Virus record (IMG/VR): IMGVR_UViG_2711768072_000014
Direction: 5' to 3' (one strand)
Length of the DNA: 14,720 nt
Origin: a virus
Lineage: Duplodnaviria; Heunggongvirae; Uroviricota; Caudoviricetes
Shown: in pieces, positions 1,252-8,959 of the stretch
Numbering within the stretch: the stretch's first letter is position 1
Layout: each line of letters begins with the position of its first letter
Notes under the pieces: generated by a model
Told to the model about the DNA's origin: nothing
Database searches by the model: none
Seen by the model: the letters and a program-made list of their open reading frames with translations, nothing else
Position numbers and translations under genes: made by a program

Positions 1252-1592
1252 GATATGCGAACAGATACAACATGCAACAATGAGCAACAATGCGGAACAA
1301 CTACGAACAAGAGGCGAAAAAGTGTACGGATTTATAAGTGGCTGATTTTTAATGTGTTACTGGTTTTTTATACACTAGCGAATCACTCTTTAAATAGCGA
1401 GAAAAAAGGCATGAAACAATATTTTATGCCTTTGTATTAACATGAATTTAAATGATTTTATCCTGATTATTCCTGTTTCTGTAAACCATACGACCTCAAC
1501 ATTTGCCAACTCTGAATCATCCTGACACAATCAGACACATCCCAACGCAATAGAACACGAAATAACTCTTTAAGAAACGAAAGGGGGCAATA

Positions 1593-3755: not shown

Positions 3756-4055
3756 ATGAAACTTAAATATTCTGGCTTAACTGCCAGTGGCAACACTCAC
3801 CCTAAATTTACGCGCGGTGATATTTACCGCGACCAGTACGGCGGCACGGTAATGATTAAGGGCGTGGCGGGACGGTGCGTAACTTACCGCCGTGAAGGTT
3901 ACGAATATGATTGCGTGATGCCTGTTTATCAGTTCCGGCGTGATTTTTCTCTGGTACAGACCGCGCCGCATAACGTGCCCACCAGCAACGCCAGGGCACG
4001 GGCAAACATCCAGAAGCTGAAAACCATGATTAACGGATTCAGGGGCAAGAAATGA
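3756..4055 (+). CDS. Hypothetical protein (99 aa)
   Basis: ATG at 3756 with GGAGA upstream. Stop overlaps the start of the replication gene (ATGA). Confidence 0.6.
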   Translation: MKLKYSGLTASGNTHPKFTRGDIYRDQYGGTVMIKGVAGRCVTYRREGYEYDCVMPVYQFRRDFSLVQTAPHNVPTSNARARANIQKLKTMINGFRGKK

Positions 4056-5449
4056 AAAGCGCACCGAACTTAAAAAAACAGCCTTACGACAAGATGACCG
4101 AAGTCATCATTTTTGCGGGTAGTGATGCGTGGGCACATGCGAAACAGTGGCAGGAACAGGACGGGCGACTGGCTGGCGATAATGTGCCTCCCATTGTGCT
4201 GGCTGATGATCAACTGGATGAACTGGCAGACCTGAGAATCATCGACGAGGGGCGCTATTGTGTCCGGCTGTACAAGGCAGGCCACATCAGGCCATCAAAT
4301 ATTAATGCCATTGCGCACAAGCTGGCGGCGGCGGGCGTAACTGATGCGAATTATTACCCCGAAGGGATACACAGCCAGAAGCGGGAGAACTGGCGCGAAT
4401 ATCTGGAACGGGAGCGGGGGAAAAAGCCAGGGGAAGAACACCACCAGCGAAAAACCACGCTACCGATGAGCGTTGGATCTGCCGGATACGACACGCAATT
4501 AGATTACGTGGTAAAGGGGATTATTCCGGCATCGTCGCTATGCAGCATATACGGGGCAAGCGGTTCCTATAAATCATTCCTTGCGGGTTCGTGGGCGTGT
4601 CACGTTTCCACGGGCCGCCAGTGGGGAGGCCGCAGGGTGGCGCATGGCGCTGTTCTCTATGTGGTTGGTGAAGGCGGTATCGGCGTTCCGCGTCGTGTAA
4701 AAGCCTGGGAGGTTGTGCACGGTGAGCAGGTGAAAAATCTGTATCTGGTAAACCGTCCAGTTTTTCCGGCTGTCCCGCTTGATGTTGATGAACTGGTTAT
4801 CGCTGCCCGTCAGGTGGAGCGGGAAACGGGTAAACCTGTACGCATGATTATTCTTGATACTCTGGCGCGTTGCTTTGGTGGCAATGATGAAAATGATTCC
4901 CGTGATATGGGGGCGTTTATCCGTGGGTGTGACGAGCTTAAACGGCGCACAGGGGCCACGGTGCTGGTGGTTCACCATTCCGGCAAGGATGAGACGAAAG
5001 GCGCGCGCGGTTCCAGTGCATTTCGTGCTTCGCTGGATGCTGAATACCGGATACGCAGGGAGGACGCAGGAAGCGAAGCGCTGGTTATCTCATGCACCAA
5101 AATGAAGGACGCGGAGGAACTCAAAGAGGCTGCCTATGATTTGCGGGTGGTGGAGCTTTTTACCGACGCTGACGGGGAGTTAATCACGTCGCTGGTGGTG
5201 GTGGATAAGCCGCGCCCTCCCGTTGAACTGGAGCGCATCGAGGAGGCAGGCAACAAGACGGAAAACCATACCGCACTATGGGGGTGCATCCGTTCACGCA
5301 CACAGAACGGCGACAAGTGCACGATCCCGCTGTTACGTGATGACATGAAACGGCTTGGGTATGACGTGAAAAATATGCGGCGATGGTTAGCCAAACTGGA
5401 AAAAGACGCCGTGATTTACATTGATGGTGATGATGTAGGACCACTGTAA
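4052..5449 (+). CDS. Replication protein with RecA-fold ATPase domain (AAA_25 / RepA-DnaB-like helicase type; PICI Pri-Rep-like)
   Basis: 465-aa ORF. Walker A-like YGASGSYKSF, Walker B-like MIILDTL and LVVHHSGKDETKG are arranged as in RecA-fold replicative ATPases of plasmids and satellites. Immediately followed by an iteron cluster. Confidence 0.8.
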   Translation: MKSAPNLKKQPYDKMTEVIIFAGSDAWAHAKQWQEQDGRLAGDNVPPIVLADDQLDELADLRIIDEGRYCVRLYKAGHIRPSNINAIAHKLAAAGVTDANYYPEGIHSQKRENWREYLERERGKKPGEEHHQRKTTLPMSVGSAGYDTQLDYVVKGIIPASSLCSIYGASGSYKSFLAGSWACHVSTGRQWGGRRVAHGAVLYVVGEGGIGVPRRVKAWEVVHGEQVKNLYLVNRPVFPAVPLDVDELVIAARQVERETGKPVRMIILDTLARCFGGNDENDSRDMGAFIRGCDELKRRTGATVLVVHHSGKDETKGARGSSAFRASLDAEYRIRREDAGSEALVISCTKMKDAEELKEAAYDLRVVELFTDADGELITSLVVVDKPRPPVELERIEEAGNKTENHTALWGCIRSRTQNGDKCTIPLLRDDMKRLGYDVKNMRRWLAKLEKDAVIYIDGDDVGPL

Positions 5450-5450
5450 A

Positions 5451-5648
5451 AAGTGAGTAGCAAAAGTGAGTAATGGTGAGGTTTTTACAAAATATTAACA
5501 CGATTGCTCACTTTCTCACCTGTATACATGCTCAAAAGTGAGGAGTAAAAAAATGCTTATGAAACATGCATATATAAAACACGAAAATCTCAAGCGAGAC
5601 GAAGTGAGACGCGTTAAAAAGTGAGGCGTAAAAGTGAGCGCGAGTGAG
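5451..5648. repeat. Putative replication origin: iterons of (A)AGTGAG in direct and inverted orientation flanking AT-rich spacers
   Basis: AAGTGAG at 5451, 5464, 5536, 5602, 5619 and 5632; GGTGAG at 5475; GAGTGAG at 5642; inverted copies CTCACTT and TCTCACC at 5507-5520. AT-rich stretches at 5481-5500 and 5545-5590. Directly downstream of the replication ATPase gene. Confidence 0.6.
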
Positions 5649-5660
5649 GAGATAACCAAA

Positions 5661-6214: not shown

Positions 6215-6625
6215 ATGACAGCACAAATTGCAGCTTACGGGCGGCTGGTGGACGACCCGCTGGTAAAACAGAGCAGCAAGGGCACACCGATGACTCTGGC
6301 GCGTATGGCGGTATCGTTGCCATGCAGCCAGGCACATGACGGACAGGCGACGTTATGGTTATCGGTTATCGCATTTGGCAAACAGGCCGATTTCCTGGCT
6401 AAACATCAAAAAGGCGATGTTGCCAGCGTATCCGGCACGATGCAGGTAAGCCAGTGGACCGGACAGAACGGGGAAACGCGGCGGGGGTATCAGGTTATTG
6501 CAGACAGCGTAATCAGTGCCCGCGCGGCACGTCCAGGCGGGAACAGACGCAAAACCACAGGCACACAGGGTAATCAGCCACCAGCGGGAGGCGATGACCC
6601 TTACGGTGACGGTATTCCGTTCTGA
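6215..6625 (+). CDS. ssb: Single-stranded DNA-binding protein (short SSB with acidic C-terminal tail)
   Basis: 136 aa. Core WLSVIAFGKQADFLAKHQKGD...QWTGQNGETRRGYQV parallels the E. coli SSB OB-fold (WHRVVLFGKLAE...KWTDQSGQDRY). The C-terminus DDPYGDGIPF matches the SSB protein-interaction tail (DDDIPF). GAGGTGG Shine-Dalgarno. Confidence 0.8.
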   Translation: MTAQIAAYGRLVDDPLVKQSSKGTPMTLARMAVSLPCSQAHDGQATLWLSVIAFGKQADFLAKHQKGDVASVSGTMQVSQWTGQNGETRRGYQVIADSVISARAARPGGNRRKTTGTQGNQPPAGGDDPYGDGIPF

Positions 6626-6635
6626 GGGGGTGACG

Positions 6636-6884
6636 ATGGTACATGACCGCACAGCGGAGGAACTCGAGGCAAAAGGCTTTTACCGGAGGGCGTCGGCGCG
6701 ATGGGGTGAAGTCATGCAACTGGTGGAGACAGACAAGGAACGGCATCAGGTTACGATGCGACGGCTGGAATGTTCCAGGAAGGCACAGAGGCCACCGGAG
6801 CCGCCAACGGAGAACTACGCAGACCTGAGAAATGCAGTAAATCGCACTTACGCAGACATGGGGCTGAGCAAATTAGCAGAGTAG
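6636..6884 (+). CDS. Small putative transcriptional regulator, PerC-like (tentative family assignment)
   Basis: 82 aa from ATG 6636, with GGGGG upstream just after the SSB stop. Motif AEELEAKGFYRRASARWGEVM resembles the LEAKG-x-RRAA-x-RW motif I recall for PerC/Pch-family activators; this is a recollection, not a search. The track ORF starting at 6516 overlaps ssb and is taken as an unlikely extension. Confidence 0.5.
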   Translation: MVHDRTAEELEAKGFYRRASARWGEVMQLVETDKERHQVTMRRLECSRKAQRPPEPPTENYADLRNAVNRTYADMGLSKLAE

Positions 6885-6907
6885 GAATATCAGAACCACA
6901 CCACGCA

Positions 6908-6938
6908 GCCGGAGCAATCCGGCTTTTTGTTATTTTTT
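6908..6938 (+). terminator. Intrinsic terminator after the PerC-like gene
   Basis: GCCGGA (6908-6913) pairs with TCCGGC (6918-6923) around a GCAA loop, followed by TTTTTGTTATTTTTT. Confidence 0.6.
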
Positions 6939-7150
6939 GTAAATTATTTGTTCGTGGTTGTTCCACGTTGTTCACTGAGCGGATCGGCATATTTTACCCG
7001 AACTGAATCATGATTATTCTCGCCCGTGGTGCCAGGACGCTGGGGCCACTTTCCTGCCTGTTAATGTGCCCGCCAATATTCATTACCAGGCGGGAAAACG
7101 ATCGGTGCGATTACTGATTTCCTTATGAAAAACGGTTGAGTGTTTGCCGC

Positions 7151-7189
7151 GTCCTGGAGTTCCTTACTTAACCCCAGGACTTTTTTTTT
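7151..7189 (+). terminator. Terminator-like hairpin plus T9 run abutting the capsid gene start codon (candidate attenuator)
   Basis: GTCCTGG (7151-7157) pairs with CCAGGAC (7174-7180); T9 at 7181-7189; ATG at 7190. No Shine-Dalgarno between the hairpin and the start. Confidence 0.4.
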
Positions 7190-8347
7190 ATGCAGAGAAT
7201 AATCGAATTACGCCAGCAGAAAACCGCCATTAAAAATCAGATGCGCGACATGCTGGAGAACGCTGAAAAAGAAAACCGCAGTCTTAACGATGCTGAGGGC
7301 GCAAAATTTGACGAATTACGCGCTAAAGCTGAATCCCTCGATAAAGACATTTCCCGCCTTGAAGCCATTGCAGACGAAGAGCGCAGCAAGCCAGGTAAAA
7401 GCAGCCAGACCACTGACCCCGCAGAACTACGCAGCTACATTCTGACAGGTGAAACCCGCGCATTAAGTACAGGCGTTCCCGCTGATGGTGGTTATACCGT
7501 TATCCCCGAACTGAACACCGAAATCATGCGAATGCTGGCGGATGAATCCACCATGCGCCGCATCTGTACCGTGAAGAAAATCAGCAGCAACGAGTTTAAG
7601 CAGCTTGTTTCCGCTGGCGGTGCGACCGTTAACCACGGTGAAGAGGGTAAGGCACGCGAACAGACCAGCACCCCGCAGATTAACGAGGTGAGCATTAAGC
7701 TGTATCCGGTCTATGCGTACCCGCGCACCACGCAGGAAATCGTGGATTTTTCCGATGTGGACATCCTTTCATGGCTGACGGGCGAGATTGGCGACACCTT
7801 CACGGAAACCGAAGAAAGCGATCTGGTTGTGGGCGACGGTGACAAAAAAGCAAAAGGTTTTTTATCCGTACCCCGTGCAGAGAAGAACGACAAAGAGCGT
7901 GATTTTGGTACGTTGCAGGTAATTAAACCTTCCGAATCTCTGGCGTGGACATCTGCGGACCCGCTGATCGACCTGAAATTTGCATTACGTAAAAAATACC
8001 GCAAAAACGCGGTCTGGGTGGTTAACTCCACGACGGCCGCAAAACTTCAGAAGGTGAAGAACGCGAACGGTGATTACATCTGGCGCGACCGTTTACAGGC
8101 GGGTGATCCTGATACGTTGCTGGGCCTTCCGGTCGAATATCTGGAGTTTATGCCTGATAACGTTATTGCCCTGGGTGACTTCAAACGCGGTTACTACATT
8201 GTTGATCACGAAACAGGTGTTCGCACCAGACCGGACAACCTCACAGAGCCGGGCTTCATCAAAATTTTCACGCAGAAATATTTAGGCGGTGGCGTGGTGG
8301 ATTCGAACGCGATCAAGATTCTGGAACTGCCACAGGACGACGATTAA
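7190..8347 (+). CDS. Major capsid protein, HK97 fold, with N-terminal coiled-coil scaffolding (delta-like) domain
   Basis: 385 aa. The first ~100 residues are charged and helical (ELRQQKTAIKNQMRDMLENAEKE...DKDISRLEAIADEE), as in HK97-type delta domains. The remainder has a typical HK97-family capsid composition. No separate scaffold gene is present. Followed by protease and portal. Confidence 0.88.
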   Translation: MQRIIELRQQKTAIKNQMRDMLENAEKENRSLNDAEGAKFDELRAKAESLDKDISRLEAIADEERSKPGKSSQTTDPAELRSYILTGETRALSTGVPADGGYTVIPELNTEIMRMLADESTMRRICTVKKISSNEFKQLVSAGGATVNHGEEGKAREQTSTPQINEVSIKLYPVYAYPRTTQEIVDFSDVDILSWLTGEIGDTFTETEESDLVVGDGDKKAKGFLSVPRAEKNDKERDFGTLQVIKPSESLAWTSADPLIDLKFALRKKYRKNAVWVVNSTTAAKLQKVKNANGDYIWRDRLQAGDPDTLLGLPVEYLEFMPDNVIALGDFKRGYYIVDHETGVRTRPDNLTEPGFIKIFTQKYLGGGVVDSNAIKILELPQDDD

Positions 8348-8357
8348 CAGCATACAG

Positions 8358-8386
8358 AAGGGGCTTAAAAGCCCCTTTAGTGTTTT
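8358..8386 (+). terminator. Terminator-like hairpin between capsid and protease genes (possible partial terminator setting capsid:protease stoichiometry)
   Basis: AAGGGGC (8358-8364) pairs with GCCCCTT (8371-8377) around a TTAAAA loop, followed by a T-rich tail TAGTGTTTT directly before ATG 8387. Confidence 0.4.
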
Positions 8387-8959
8387 ATGGGTGAAAAAAT
8401 TATGAAGAGTATGGAAATCCGGTCATCGGAAATCACTACCAGCGGAGCCGGTACGCTGACGGGCTACGTTGTTCGCTGGGATAAGCTTTCAGAACTGCTA
8501 TGGGGGGAGTTTTACGAAAAATTCCAGCGGGGGGCGTTTACTGAGTGGCTTGCGGCGGATAATGACGTTCGCGGCCTGTATGAGCATGACCACAGCATGT
8601 TACTGGGGCGCACCCGTTCCGGCACGCTGAAACTGGAAGAGGACGAAACAGGGTTACGCTTTGAACTGACCCCACCGGATACCAGTACAGGGCGCGACGT
8701 TATCGAACTGGTTAAACGAGGTGATATATCCGGCATGAGCTTTGGCTTTCGTTCCCGTAAGGATGTATGGGATACCACAACAGATCCATGCGTGCGCACC
8801 GTGCTGGTGGCGGAACTGTACGAAATTACCGTTACATCCGTACCGGCTTACCCTGATTCCGGCGTGGAGCTGGCCCGCCGCTCCCTGTACGAGCAGCACC
8901 CCGAAAAAATGCCGCGTGCGGATAATCGCCGCTGGTGGGCGGATTTAGCGGGGGTGTGA
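8387..8959 (+). CDS. Prohead maturation protease, HK97 family (S78-type)
   Basis: 190 aa. Motifs GYVVRWD, YEHDHS, GMSFGF and VPAYPDS parallel HK97 gp4-type prohead proteases (GYAAVFD, WAHD, GLSIGF, FPAN). Start may instead be ATG 8402 or 8411. Confidence 0.85.
   Translation: MGEKIMKSMEIRSSEITTSGAGTLTGYVVRWDKLSELLWGEFYEKFQRGAFTEWLAADNDVRGLYEHDHSMLLGRTRSGTLKLEEDETGLRFELTPPDTSTGRDVIELVKRGDISGMSFGFRSRKDVWDTTTDPCVRTVLVAELYEITVTSVPAYPDSGVELARRSLYEQHPEKMPRADNRRWWADLAGV

Follow-up and report, generated by a model that had tools for sequence, protein, structure and literature searches.

A predicted attenuator-like leader RNA precedes the capsid gene of an EcCIEDL933-type capsid-forming PICI

In the 14,720-nucleotide stretch of viral DNA analysed here (IMG/VR record IMGVR_UViG_2711768072_000014; hereafter, the window), the capsid gene is preceded by a 305-bp spacer, which contains a terminator, a conserved promoter and a folded leader RNA, as judged from the sequence. 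In related loci, the terminator (T1), a conserved motif, phased TTGTTC repeats, the sigma70-type promoter and a leader of approximately 165 nt are co-inherited as one cassette. Our best explanation, to which as a whole we give slightly less than an even chance, is that the spacer is the control cassette of the packaging (late) operon and that its leader acts like an attenuator, with terminator and antiterminator alternatives, and not like a lambda Q-type system.

Pfam matches, the RefSeq annotation and the published description identify the window as an EcCIEDL933/CP-933C-type capsid-forming PICI (cf-PICI), an E. coli phage satellite. The annotated genes are int, alpA, helicase, ssb, capsid, protease, portal, HNH, terS and terL. 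As in other cf-PICIs, a P4-type integrase, alpA and primase/helicase are combined with an own set of capsid, protease, portal, connector and HNH-terS-terL genes; tail and lysis genes are absent and the size is about 15 kb. In RefSeq, a 99.5%-identical island sits between allE and allC. EcCIEDL933 is a published cf-PICI whose capsids are known to form after induction, and the alpA gene of EcCICFT073 has been described as identical to EcCIEDL933 alpA. For comparison, we used more than 130 related loci. The window-type leader was present in at least 360 of 5,426 complete E. coli genomes. In the phage database, no record contained the window leader, and the leader of the main cf-PICI lineage (main family) was found in only three records, namely a 16.5-kb 'induced prophage', a 3.8-kb fragment and a 106-kb Klebsiella phage record.

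The gene that precedes the spacer (6636-6884, plus strand) encodes an 82-amino-acid protein of the PerC family (PchE-type; Pfam PF06069, E = 2.8e-35), and its product is named PchE in OI-51/CP-933C/Sp7. The initial annotation had regarded this gene as a small regulator-like gene and had named its protein among the factors to be considered for read-through into the capsid operon. The Pfam match supports the former description. However, a consistent link to the capsid control region was not observed. Among close relatives, at least four different genes precede the T1-promoter-leader cassette; in other cf-PICIs, ProQ/FinO or other genes fill this slot, and in one locus (L002) only a remnant of PerC is left. 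Because the same cassette follows such varied genes, PerC is not a dedicated capsid regulator, and control by this protein is not supported. Judged from these neighbourhoods, PerC is interchangeable accessory cargo before the packaging operon, outside the conserved control cassette. This corrects the tempting annotation-based inference that an adjacent PerC gene regulates the capsid operon.

Downstream of the PerC gene, the intrinsic terminator reported earlier is indeed located at 6907-6939 (T1, plus strand). Its stem (6907-6924; 7 bp, of which five are GC, with a loop of 4) is followed by a T-rich tail at 6925-6939 (TTTTGTTATTTTTTG; the tail is also listed as TTTTGTTATT). A GC-rich stem, a short loop and a T-rich tail directly 3' to the stem are the features of an intrinsic terminator, and T1 ranked second among the terminator-like sites of the window in a consensus scan (folding dG -12.6, z -2.8). 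In close relatives, T1 is kept with the cassette whichever gene precedes it. T1 is predicted to end the early/accessory transcription unit and to insulate the capsid operon from upstream genes.

On the same strand, the motif TTTTGTAAATTAT (6935-6947) is followed by three TTGTTC repeats at 6948, 6958 and 6968, and this array (6935-6975) is conserved across loci. The motif and the repeats form four units in a 10-11 bp phase, at about -91 to -51 from the predicted transcription start. The motif, slightly varied, occurs upstream of capsid genes in Escherichia, Shigella, Rosenbergiella, Citrobacter and Erwinia loci, and a looser version is found in Gilliamella; the TTGTTC repeats differ according to the element. 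An inverted copy of the phased TTGTTC/TTGTTG array lies in the int-alpA spacer, upstream of alpA (1255-1312, minus strand). Within it, a 25-nt stretch of the array is copied with three mismatches (1286-1310, minus strand), where zero such copies are expected by chance. A mirror arrangement with element-specific repeats was also found in L014, L084, L094 and L020. The array at 1255-1312 is likely a binding site for the same island protein as the capsid array. In EcCICFT073, AlpA activates its own promoter and PICI genes. The duplication of the array, inverted, upstream of alpA suggests an AlpA-type activation of the capsid promoter. When island proteins were compared with repeat type, AlpA separated most clearly relative to the window in a comparison that is confounded by phylogeny: AlpA identity to the window was at least 60% where the repeats are the same and at most 64% where they are different. 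Three different AlpA variants occur with the same repeats, and AlpA type and repeat type do not correlate cleanly.

Between T1 and the terminator-like hairpin at the capsid start codon, a sigma70-type late promoter is predicted at 6993-7020 (plus strand), with a -35 element TTTACC (6993-6998), a 16-bp spacer and a -10 element TATTCT (7015-7020); the predicted transcription start is 7026-7028. We counted promoter positions from the start of hairpin A (described below) in 108 distinct upstream sequences. At -11 to -6, the conservation was T 100%, A 100%, T 94%, n, T 86% and T 100%, and at -33 to -29 it was TTT 98-100%, A 58% and C 84%. Throughout these 108 sequences, T-A-T-n-T-T and TTTAC are placed at a fixed 16-bp spacing and at a fixed distance to hairpin A.

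At the predicted 5' end of the leader, hairpin A (7026-7049, plus strand; GUGG-UG-CCAG-GACG-CUGG-GG-CCAC) folds with a dG of -15.6, and other lineages possess compensatory variants of it (CUCA/UGAG, CUCC/GGAG and GUGAC/GUCAC). Hairpin B (7053-7094) and hairpin B2 (7100-7119) follow and form a variable central domain (7053-7119). In the main family, eight of the nine basal pairs of hairpin B have undergone double compensatory changes, and in L183 hairpin B is a perfect 12-bp version. By the compensatory changes in hairpins A and B, the leader is an RNA structure. A palindromic DNA operator in place of hairpin A is less likely, because hairpin A of the main family is asymmetric (5-1-4-4-4-2-5) and hairpin B shows covariation of the RNA type with variable length. 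A covariance model of the main-family leader, which we built here, did not match the window leader with default filters. With the filters off, 7026-7095 aligned to hairpins A and B as a weak match (14.2 bits, E = 5e-4 in 401 nt), and the 3' half was unmatched. In a scan of the leader against Rfam 15, no family was found (the best scores were 11-21 bits, far below the gathering thresholds), and there was no known ligand-binding fold among the Rfam aptamers. A leader peptide was considered and rejected: the mini-ORF ATGAAAAACGGTTGA (7125-7139) has no Shine-Dalgarno (SD) sequence, and L183 does not possess it. An ORF that would begin with GUG near the 5' end is not conserved; in L004 it appears, by eye, to stay open through to the capsid ATG. 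The cf-PICI literature examined contains no published description of a capsid leader.

The 3' end of the leader is formed by hairpin C (7151-7180, plus strand; stem GTCCTGG...CCAGGAC) and U9 (7181-7189), which directly abuts the capsid AUG at 7190. The earlier observation that a second hairpin plus T9 ends exactly at the capsid start codon is thereby confirmed. The folding energy of hairpin C was -15.0 in one calculation (z -4.4; none of 200 shuffled sequences folded as well) and -12.7 in another, and its predicted probability was approximately 1.0 for transcript starts from 7022 to 7028. A GC-rich stem followed at once by at least seven U residues is the arrangement of a terminator. The loop comprises 12-16 nt, which is reduced to 8 nt if GUU/AAC pair as a 3-bp inner stem. 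Long loops weaken intrinsic terminators, in which a compact loop of approximately 3-8 nt is usual. The consensus terminator scan missed hairpin C because its loop exceeds 8 nt. In 24 distinct sequences, the T-run was T7 in 17, T8 in 6 and T9 in 1, so that the T9 of the window is the extreme, and the U-run was never shorter than seven and never interrupted. In L183, the capsid protein of which is 69% identical, hairpin C is kept with compensatory changes in the upper stem and a T8. In the 24 distinct close relatives, the 5' arm and the loop of hairpin C are invariant. In contrast, no part of the leader varies more than the 3' arm (seven of nine positions), and the stem is broken in 2 of the 24 sequences. 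This result suggests that selection may act mainly on the loop and on a long-range pairing of the 5' arm (P1, see below), and not on the hairpin. In the main family, the equivalent hairpin is located 4 nt from the AUG, at the ribosome-binding site, and has no U-run. Thus compared, the main-family leader looks like the same leader with translational rather than transcriptional output.

The HK97-fold major capsid gene (7190-8347, plus strand; Pfam PF05065, E = 1.6e-61) is the first gene of the packaging operon. PGAP/RefSeq uses the start at 7190, and the N-terminus M-x-(K/R)-(L/I)-(I/L)-ELRQQK is conserved from this codon in all lineages. Because the T-run varies from T7 to T9, a conserved in-frame upstream start is ruled out. 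By these three lines, 7190 is the right start. The earlier statement that the gene has no SD sequence is only partly correct: the 3' arm of hairpin C contains a weak AGGA core (7176-7179), which is separated from the ATG by 10 nt in the window and by 8 nt in the relatives with T7, the majority, but its anti-SD pairing is only -4.0 kcal/mol, as compared with -6 to -12.5 for most island genes. In all cf-PICI lineages compared, the SD of the capsid gene is weak or missing and the sequence before the AUG is A/C- or U-rich.

The 5' arm and loop of hairpin A contain the segment CCAGGACGC (7032-7040, plus strand), which is a perfect 9-nt complement of GCGUCCUGG (7149-7157, plus strand; 'anti-A'). These are the only two occurrences in the window, where 0.10 were expected, and the duplex (P1) has a dG of -19.8. 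Because 7149-7157 overlaps the 5' arm of hairpin C, P1 and hairpin C are mutually exclusive. Anti-A is invariant in the 24 distinct close relatives, while the rest of the leader varies. In other lineages, the anti-A equivalent co-varies with hairpin A: the pairs are AGACGUGA/UCACGUCU in the main lineage, GACGGGA/UCCCGUC in M2 and UAGACUG/CAGUCUA in Gilliamella. Hairpin A of M2 (L252/L272) has a U-to-G change in its 3' arm, and matching A-to-C changes are present in the 5' arm as well as in the distal segment. This three-way change suggests that both alternative pairings are under selection. The cross-lineage covariation of P1 rests on four lineage types, and its register differs, since P1 involves the 5' arm and loop of hairpin A in the window and the loop and 3' arm in the main family. 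A shuffled generic search for duplexes between the 5' end and the distal leader was too permissive to inform; therefore, explicit covariation was used for P1 instead. In folding calculations, nascent RNA up to 7158-7170 favours P1. Once the 3' arm of hairpin C is transcribed, the full RNA favours hairpins A and C by approximately 10 kcal/mol, and in equilibrium folding of the window leader P1 is never favoured. The proposed switch therefore requires an assumed trigger. For L183, the fold of lowest energy is the long-range helix.

Downstream of the capsid gene, the hairpin AAGGGGC-N4-GCCCCUU with a T-rich tail (8357-8386, plus strand) is the best terminator-like site in the window. It is conserved after the capsid stop codon in nearly all lineages, with or without a structured leader, and is probably a leaky terminator or stabiliser that sets the ratio of capsid to downstream products. 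The apparent lack of an SD sequence for the protease gene behind this terminator is an artefact of the longest-ORF/PGAP start at 8387: the ATG at 8402 is preceded by GGGTGA and agrees with relatives.

Taken together, we propose the following mechanism. T1 would stop transcription that arrives from the early/accessory genes. A helper phage would induce alpA, and the island activator, most likely AlpA, would probably switch on the late promoter via the phased repeats. Transcription from about 7026 would then produce the leader of approximately 165 nt, in which hairpins A, B and B2 are followed by hairpin C and U7-9 directly before the capsid AUG. Because this leader ends in a hairpin and a U-run, capsid expression plausibly needs read-through. 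Hairpin C would act as an intrinsic-terminator-like attenuator, which also buries the only SD-like element (AGGA), and hairpin A would be the anti-antiterminator. When P1 forms, the terminator would be blocked, and the AUG would be preceded by an unfolded, pyrimidine-rich stretch of approximately 30 nt in which AGGA is exposed. The two folds would be exclusive, A plus C being off and P1 being on, with the off state as the thermodynamic default, and the fold might be flipped by some trigger, such as a protein, an RNA or folding kinetics. The initial annotation had suggested that late expression is conditional on an antiterminator or activator. The terminator-promoter-leader-terminator form fits the conditional part of this proposal, but we favour an RNA-internal antiterminator and repeat-linked activation over a protein antiterminator. 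On this view, control of capsid production appears to reside in the RNA and not in the adjacent PerC gene.

Other readings of the same elements were compared with this attenuator-like switch. Hairpin C and the U-run may be mainly a translation or mRNA-stability element and not a working terminator, which we consider unlikely. The U-tract would then be an S1-binding, SD-poor initiation region and a spacer that puts AGGA 8-10 nt from the AUG, and the folded leader would shield the 5' end of a heavily used mRNA. The poor SD and A/C- or U-rich pre-AUG sequence common to all cf-PICI lineages and the canonical spacing of AGGA in the T7 majority are consistent with this idea. Moreover, the long loop and the variable 3' arm speak against a strong terminator, and capsids are made after induction, so that read-through must be substantial. 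However, intrinsic terminators are defined by just this anatomy, a GC-rich stem that runs directly into an uninterrupted U7-9, and the stem is maintained by compensatory changes in L183. Furthermore, hairpin C hides AGGA and is within the ribosome footprint; alone, it would therefore inhibit initiation. It is also conceivable, but rather improbable, that the leader is a constitutive leaky attenuator without a switch. In that case, T1 and hairpin C would damp read-through and the basal activity of the late promoter while the island is integrated; after induction, promoter activation and island replication would suffice, a fixed fraction of transcripts reading through, and the 5'-distal complementarity would serve overall folding only. 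Equilibrium folding, which always yields hairpin C, agrees with such a leaky attenuator, no candidate trigger was found, and the conserved, leaky-looking post-capsid terminator suggests that partial terminators are used for dosage. The three-way covariation in M2, which indicates selection on both exclusive pairings, argues against it, as do the invariance of the anti-A strand in an otherwise variable leader and the minimum-energy long-range helix of L183.

Lambda-like protein antitermination was given a low probability, below that of a leaky attenuator. Here, a helper Q/N-type factor or an island protein (AlpA or PerC) would modify RNA polymerase at the late promoter, and the modified polymerase would ignore both hairpin C and the post-capsid terminator. 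The order of promoter, short leader and terminator has the pR'-6S-tR' form, and the downstream genes lie behind another terminator-like site, the post-capsid one. For the Stx-phage PR', constant activity and termination a short distance past the promoter have been reported. Thus, the resemblance to lambdoid late operons in the initial annotation holds for the promoter/leader/terminator form. However, the first 25 bases of the predicted transcript (7026-7050; GTGGTGCCAGGACGCTGGGGCCACT) contain no TAnnnT and thus no -10-like pause element of the kind expected at a Q-dependent late promoter. A Q-like protein was found neither in the set of ORFs compared with Pfam nor in the annotation of the near-identical RefSeq island. 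Most cf-PICI lineages lack a leader terminator, sister lineages keeping the leader without the T-run, and the post-capsid terminator occurs whether or not the leader is structured. PerC is not conserved at this position. AlpA as the antiterminator was also dismissed: the P. aeruginosa AlpA antiterminator is a Q-like protein with eight helices and residues numbered beyond 140, which binds an element between -35 and -10, whereas AlpA of the window is an unrelated 62-amino-acid PF05930 protein. Finally, the terminated leader (approximately 7026-7189) might be a stable trans-acting sRNA, acting for example via the invariant CU-rich loop UUCCUUACUU, with capsid expression as a read-through by-product; this we regard as very improbable. 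Hfq/ProQ-bound sRNAs typically end in a 3' hairpin with a long U tail, the loop at 7160-7171 does not vary, and there are two copies of the motif G(A/U)UUCCUUA (7116-7125 and 7157-7166). In addition, ProQ/FinO is encoded just upstream in some cf-PICIs, and StxS, an sRNA from the Stx-phage PR' leader, is a precedent. Against such an sRNA, the main family has no terminator and would make no discrete sRNA. Also, the main text and supplementary tables of an EHEC Hfq-crosslinking study, which covered uninduced cells only, contain no ECs158x/ECs159x tags and no mention of Sp7, which counts against this possibility.

Since cf-PICIs build their own capsids and borrow tails and lysis from the helper, the timing and dose of capsid decide their spread. 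In the accessible literature, there is no description of how the packaging operon of cf-PICIs is controlled. As a broader and more speculative proposal, which is somewhat unlikely as a whole, cf-PICIs across Enterobacterales may share a previously undescribed bistable capsid leader RNA, in which hairpin A and P1 are both selected. By responding to a factor from the helper phage, the host or the island, the leader would time capsid production, and its output module would have been swapped (a start-codon terminator in the EDL933/CP-933C lineage and ribosome-binding-site occlusion in the main lineage), with the promoter wired to the AlpA-type repeat array that drives island induction. This would add a candidate cis-regulatory RNA family present in hundreds of enterobacterial genomes. 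The defined four-part cassette (terminator, repeat-flanked promoter, folded leader and terminator/RBS hairpin) would be a handle for experiments and for engineered PICI-based delivery particles.

These features can be compared with known systems. In lambdoid late control (pR'-qut-6S RNA-tR' with Q, and Stx PR'/StxS), as in the window, the promoter is followed within approximately 165 nt by a terminator that lies ahead of morphogenesis genes, and transcription yields a short leader RNA by default, which is a prediction in our case. Unlike these systems, the window has no Q gene, Q-binding element or sigma-dependent pause element; its predicted terminator abuts the start codon, an RNA-internal antiterminator is predicted, and sister lineages have no terminator. 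HK022 put RNA, which acts in cis to render RNA polymerase resistant to terminators, is similar in that a conserved pair of stem-loops comes right after a phage-type promoter, upstream of terminators that need read-through. However, the post-capsid terminator is also present in lineages with a short unstructured leader, so that the expected correlation is missing and put-like processive antitermination was rejected. The AlpA-dependent activation of EcCICFT073 involves the same AlpA type (PF05930), and in the window the capsid promoter is preceded by a second copy of the array that lies upstream of alpA; binding of AlpA to these repeats and its control of the packaging promoter are proposed here and go beyond what has been reported for that system. 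Attenuators and riboswitch expression platforms differ from the window leader, which has no conserved leader peptide, known ligand fold or Rfam match. Nevertheless, as in these systems, there are three mutually exclusive pairings in the window leader, the regulated gene is directly preceded by the predicted terminator, hairpin A sequesters a strand that could bind the 5' arm of this terminator, and related cf-PICI elements appear to occlude the ribosome-binding site in place of forming a terminator.

The window is a capsid-forming phage-inducible chromosomal island (cf-PICI). A Pfam scan identified a P4-type integrase (1-1218), AlpA (1593-1781; PF05930), a DUF4222 protein with an RGD motif (3756-4055), an AAA_25 helicase/primase (4052-5449), SSB (6215-6625), a PerC-family protein (6636-6884) and an HK97-type capsid protein (7190-8347). 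Prohead protease, portal, head completion and connector proteins are encoded downstream of the capsid gene, and HNH, P27-type small terminase and large terminase genes are also present. E. coli 2012C-4502 has a 99.5%-identical island, with the same capsid start, flanked by allE and allC. The type element EcCIEDL933 is OI-51 (CP-933C, Sp7), in which the PerC homologue is named PchE. The DUF4222 protein (99 aa, with FTRGDIY; R20-G-D) fits what has been described for RgdR, which regulates LEE and motility in OI-51/CP-933C (PMC3378721). On this basis, two genes of the virulence-regulator type, RgdR and PchE, are present in the window. At least five copies of the iteron AAAAGTGAG, direct and inverted, are found at 5447-5660 in a 450-bp non-coding stretch 3′ of the helicase/primase gene; this stretch is probably the replication origin of the island.

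The initial annotation described a terminator after the regulator-like gene and a second hairpin with a T-run ending at the capsid start codon, and both are present. The terminator, T1, has a 7-bp stem (6907-6924) and a T-rich tail (dG -12.6, z -2.8), and ranks second among the terminator-like sites of the window. The second hairpin, hairpin C (GTCCTGG...CCAGGAC, 7151-7180; dG -15.0, z -4.4), is followed by T9 (7181-7189) and the ATG at 7190; none of 200 shuffles folded equally well. RefSeq uses this start codon, and the N-terminus is conserved from it in lineages with differing upstream DNA. Among 24 distinct sequences, from the window and relatives L137-L176, the T-run before the ATG is T7 in 17, T8 in six and T9 in one (the window). 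Because its length differs, there is no conserved in-frame start upstream. Thus, the start at 7190 is secure. In T7 copies, an upstream GTG falls in frame with the capsid gene and therefore ORF finders can over-extend it (for example, L002 5953, in the Shigella flexneri copy). The start had also been described as lacking a Shine-Dalgarno sequence. A weak core, AGGA, nevertheless exists at 7176-7179 in the 3′ arm of hairpin C, 10 nt from the ATG in the window and 8 nt from it in most copies, which have T7. The anti-SD pairing predicted for AGGA is -4.0 kcal/mol, whereas most genes of the island reach -6 to -12.5.

The PerC gene had been described as a regulator-like gene preceding the capsid operon. 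Among close relatives, at least four different genes occupy the position ahead of the T1-to-ATG block, and PerC is interchangeable there. In other E. coli cf-PICIs, the motif and repeats of this block are preceded either by a hypothetical gene together with one of the ProQ/FinO family, or by a gene on the reverse strand. In L002 (5173-5700), ssb and perC are fused and a 53-aa remnant is left. According to a published comparison of EcCIGN02175 and KpCIDSM30104, the region before the packaging operon varies, and immune systems are expected to be encoded there. LEE1 was unaffected by the PerC homologues of EcCIEDL933 and EcCICFT073. Therefore, PerC is not a dedicated regulator of the capsid operon; sequence comparison indicates that it is cargo and that the T1-to-ATG spacer is a mobile cassette. 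The ProQ/FinO-family RNA-binding protein gene is directly upstream of the cassette in L014 (6209-6739) and L015 (6190-6732), and a link to the structured leader is possible. L002 has an additional 100-aa ORF without a Pfam match ahead of T1; in Rosenbergiella (L003) and Gilliamella (L006), homologues of this ORF end shortly upstream of the predicted late promoter.

We compared capsid upstream regions from Shigella, Rosenbergiella, Citrobacter, Erwinia, Gilliamella and viral-contig collections. The motif TTTTGTAAATTAT followed by repeats at a 10-11 bp phase is common to all of them, more loosely in Gilliamella; in the window, TTGTTC at 6948, 6958 and 6968 accompanies the motif. Positions were counted from hairpin A, the first hairpin of the leader, in 108 distinct sequences. 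Conservation at -11 to -6 is T 100%, A 100%, T 94%, n, T 86% and T 100%, and at -33 to -29 it is TTT (98-100%), A 58% and C 84%. Judged by this base conservation, these positions are a sigma70 promoter signature with a 16-bp spacer. For the window, this predicts a -35 at 6993-6998, a -10 at 7015-7020 and a start at 7026-7028, at the very beginning of hairpin A. About two-fifths of the sequences have T instead of A at -30, and a GC hairpin and T-run in place of the -35-like TTTACA. Thus, every cassette examined has a terminator-like insulator, either T1-like before the repeats or abutting the core promoter. The int-alpA spacer contains an inverted copy of the motif/repeat array at 1286-1310 (three mismatches in 25 nt; no matches expected by chance). 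The wider array there (1255-1312, minus strand; about six phased TTGTTC/TTGTTG repeats) mirrors the pre-capsid array, and L014, L084, L094 and L020 have the same arrangement with element-specific repeat sequences. In EcCICFT073, alpA is switched on by helper phages, and AlpA activates its own promoter and PICI genes. The mirrored repeats and this self-activation would be explained most simply if a single island protein, most likely AlpA, bound to both arrays and so coupled the late promoter to induction. AlpA type and repeat type showed no clean correspondence; three different AlpA variants are found with identical repeats. Just upstream of the int-alpA array there is a perfect 16-bp palindrome, CAGTATGCGCATACTG (1238-1253), flanked by T-runs.

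In the main cf-PICI family (M), hairpin A is GUGGC-A-CUCA-GACG-UGAG-CC-GCCAC. A variable hairpin B, a CU-rich linker, the invariant block GGUUUCACGUC and hairpin C (UGGUUUC...GAAACCA, ending 4 nt from the AUG) follow, without a U-run. RNAalifold recovered hairpins A and B, and double compensatory changes were found in eight of the nine basal pairs of hairpin B. Thus, this region functions as RNA. In the window lineage (W), hairpin A (7026-7049; GUGG-UG-CCAG-GACG-CUGG-GG-CCAC) is followed by hairpins B (7053-7094) and B2 (7100-7119), and the 3′ part beyond is unlike M. A covariance model of the M leader matched its variant M2 (L252, L272) at E ~1e-19. With filters off only, it matched hairpins A and B of the window (7026-7095) at 14.2 bits, a weak match (E 5e-4 in 401 nt) with the 3′ half unmatched. 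No Rfam family matched any leader version. Only three records of the phage database contain the M leader (a 16.5-kb "induced prophage", a 3.8-kb fragment and a 106-kb Klebsiella phage), and none contains the W leader. AT-rich cf-PICI lineages (L223, L224, L226, L229-L231, L235, L236; L228, L233, L234) retain the motif, repeats, hairpin/T-run and promoter. One of their leader types is only about 45 nt and unstructured; in the other, the 5′ end pairs with an RBS-adjacent segment (CATGTAGGT/ACCTACATG, CATGCAGGTG/CACTGCATG). The window leader carries the direct repeat GA(T/G)TTCCTTA at 7116-7125 and 7157-7166, the second copy being within the invariant loop of hairpin C. This repeat resembles the 16S rRNA 3′ end (CCUCCUUA), and M leaders have the CU-rich linker (e.g. 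CCUCCCCUCC) instead.

In the window, CCAGGACGC (7032-7040, 5′ arm and loop of hairpin A) is perfectly complementary to GCGUCCUGG (7149-7157), which overlaps the 5′ arm of hairpin C; these are the sole two occurrences (0.10 expected). Long-range complementarity is also found in M (AGACGUGA/UCACGUCU), M2 (GACGGGA/UCCCGUC) and Gilliamella (UAGACUG(C)/(G)CAGUCUA). In M2, a U-to-G change in the 3′ arm of hairpin A is accompanied by A-to-C changes in its 5′ arm and in the distal segment. These three-way matched changes suggest that hairpin A and the long-range helix (P1) are both selected although they are mutually exclusive. Across the 24 distinct W sequences, 7149-7171 (distal strand and hairpin C loop) is invariant, and the 3′ arm of hairpin C (7172-7180) is the most variable stretch of the leader; some variants lengthen the stem (CUUC) and two break it. 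In L183, a more distant relative whose capsid is 69% identical, hairpin C is retained together with T8, and its upper stem carries compensatory changes. Nearest-neighbour equilibrium folding from starts at 7022-7028 predicted hairpins A and C with a probability of about 1, and the constrained long-range fold in the window was predicted to be about 10-12 kcal/mol worse. P1 was predicted to be preferred in nascent RNA that extends to 7158-7170 and still lacks the 3′ arm, and in L183 it is the predicted minimum-energy fold. These predictions suggest that the default state in the window is the formed terminator. Read-through would need hairpin A to be opened or pre-empted.

We propose that T1 ends the upstream transcription unit, that the repeat-flanked promoter would fire upon induction, and that the leader would then choose between hairpins A and C and P1. 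Formation of A and C would cause termination at the U-run and bury AGGA; P1 would abolish the terminator, so that AGGA would be exposed and about 30 nt of pyrimidine-rich RNA would stay open. In M, the same logic may apply with a translational output. A strong hairpin after the capsid gene (8357-8378; AAGGGGC-N4-GCCCCUU and a T-rich tail) is conserved in nearly all cf-PICI lineages, with or without a structured leader; it probably determines how much capsid is made relative to the downstream products. For the protease, a start at ATG 8402 (GGGTGA upstream, M-K-x as in relatives) is more likely than the PGAP/longest-ORF start at 8387.

Other explanations of the leader were considered. It is unlikely that the hairpin and U-run serve translation or stability without real termination, and a fixed leaky attenuator without a switch is less likely again. 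The initial annotation likened the arrangement to lambdoid antitermination. Protein antitermination of this kind is improbable: the predicted initially transcribed bases (7026-7050) contain no pause element, no Q-like gene was seen among the ORFs scanned against Pfam or in the RefSeq annotation of the near-identical island, the AlpA antiterminator of P. aeruginosa is an unrelated protein, PerC is not conserved upstream of the cassette, and most lineages have no leader terminator. A leader-derived sRNA like StxS seems the least probable; a published EHEC Hfq-crosslinking paper and its supplementary tables, which cover uninduced cells only, contain no ECs158x/ECs159x gene tags and do not mention Sp7.

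The conditional read-through in the initial annotation was thus built on real features and right as a general idea, but it was attributed to the wrong players. The conserved leader and its proposed coupling to an alpA-shared repeat array are found neither in Rfam nor in the accessible PICI literature; the individual parts, namely an intrinsic terminator, a sigma70 promoter and an attenuator-type leader, belong to known kinds.
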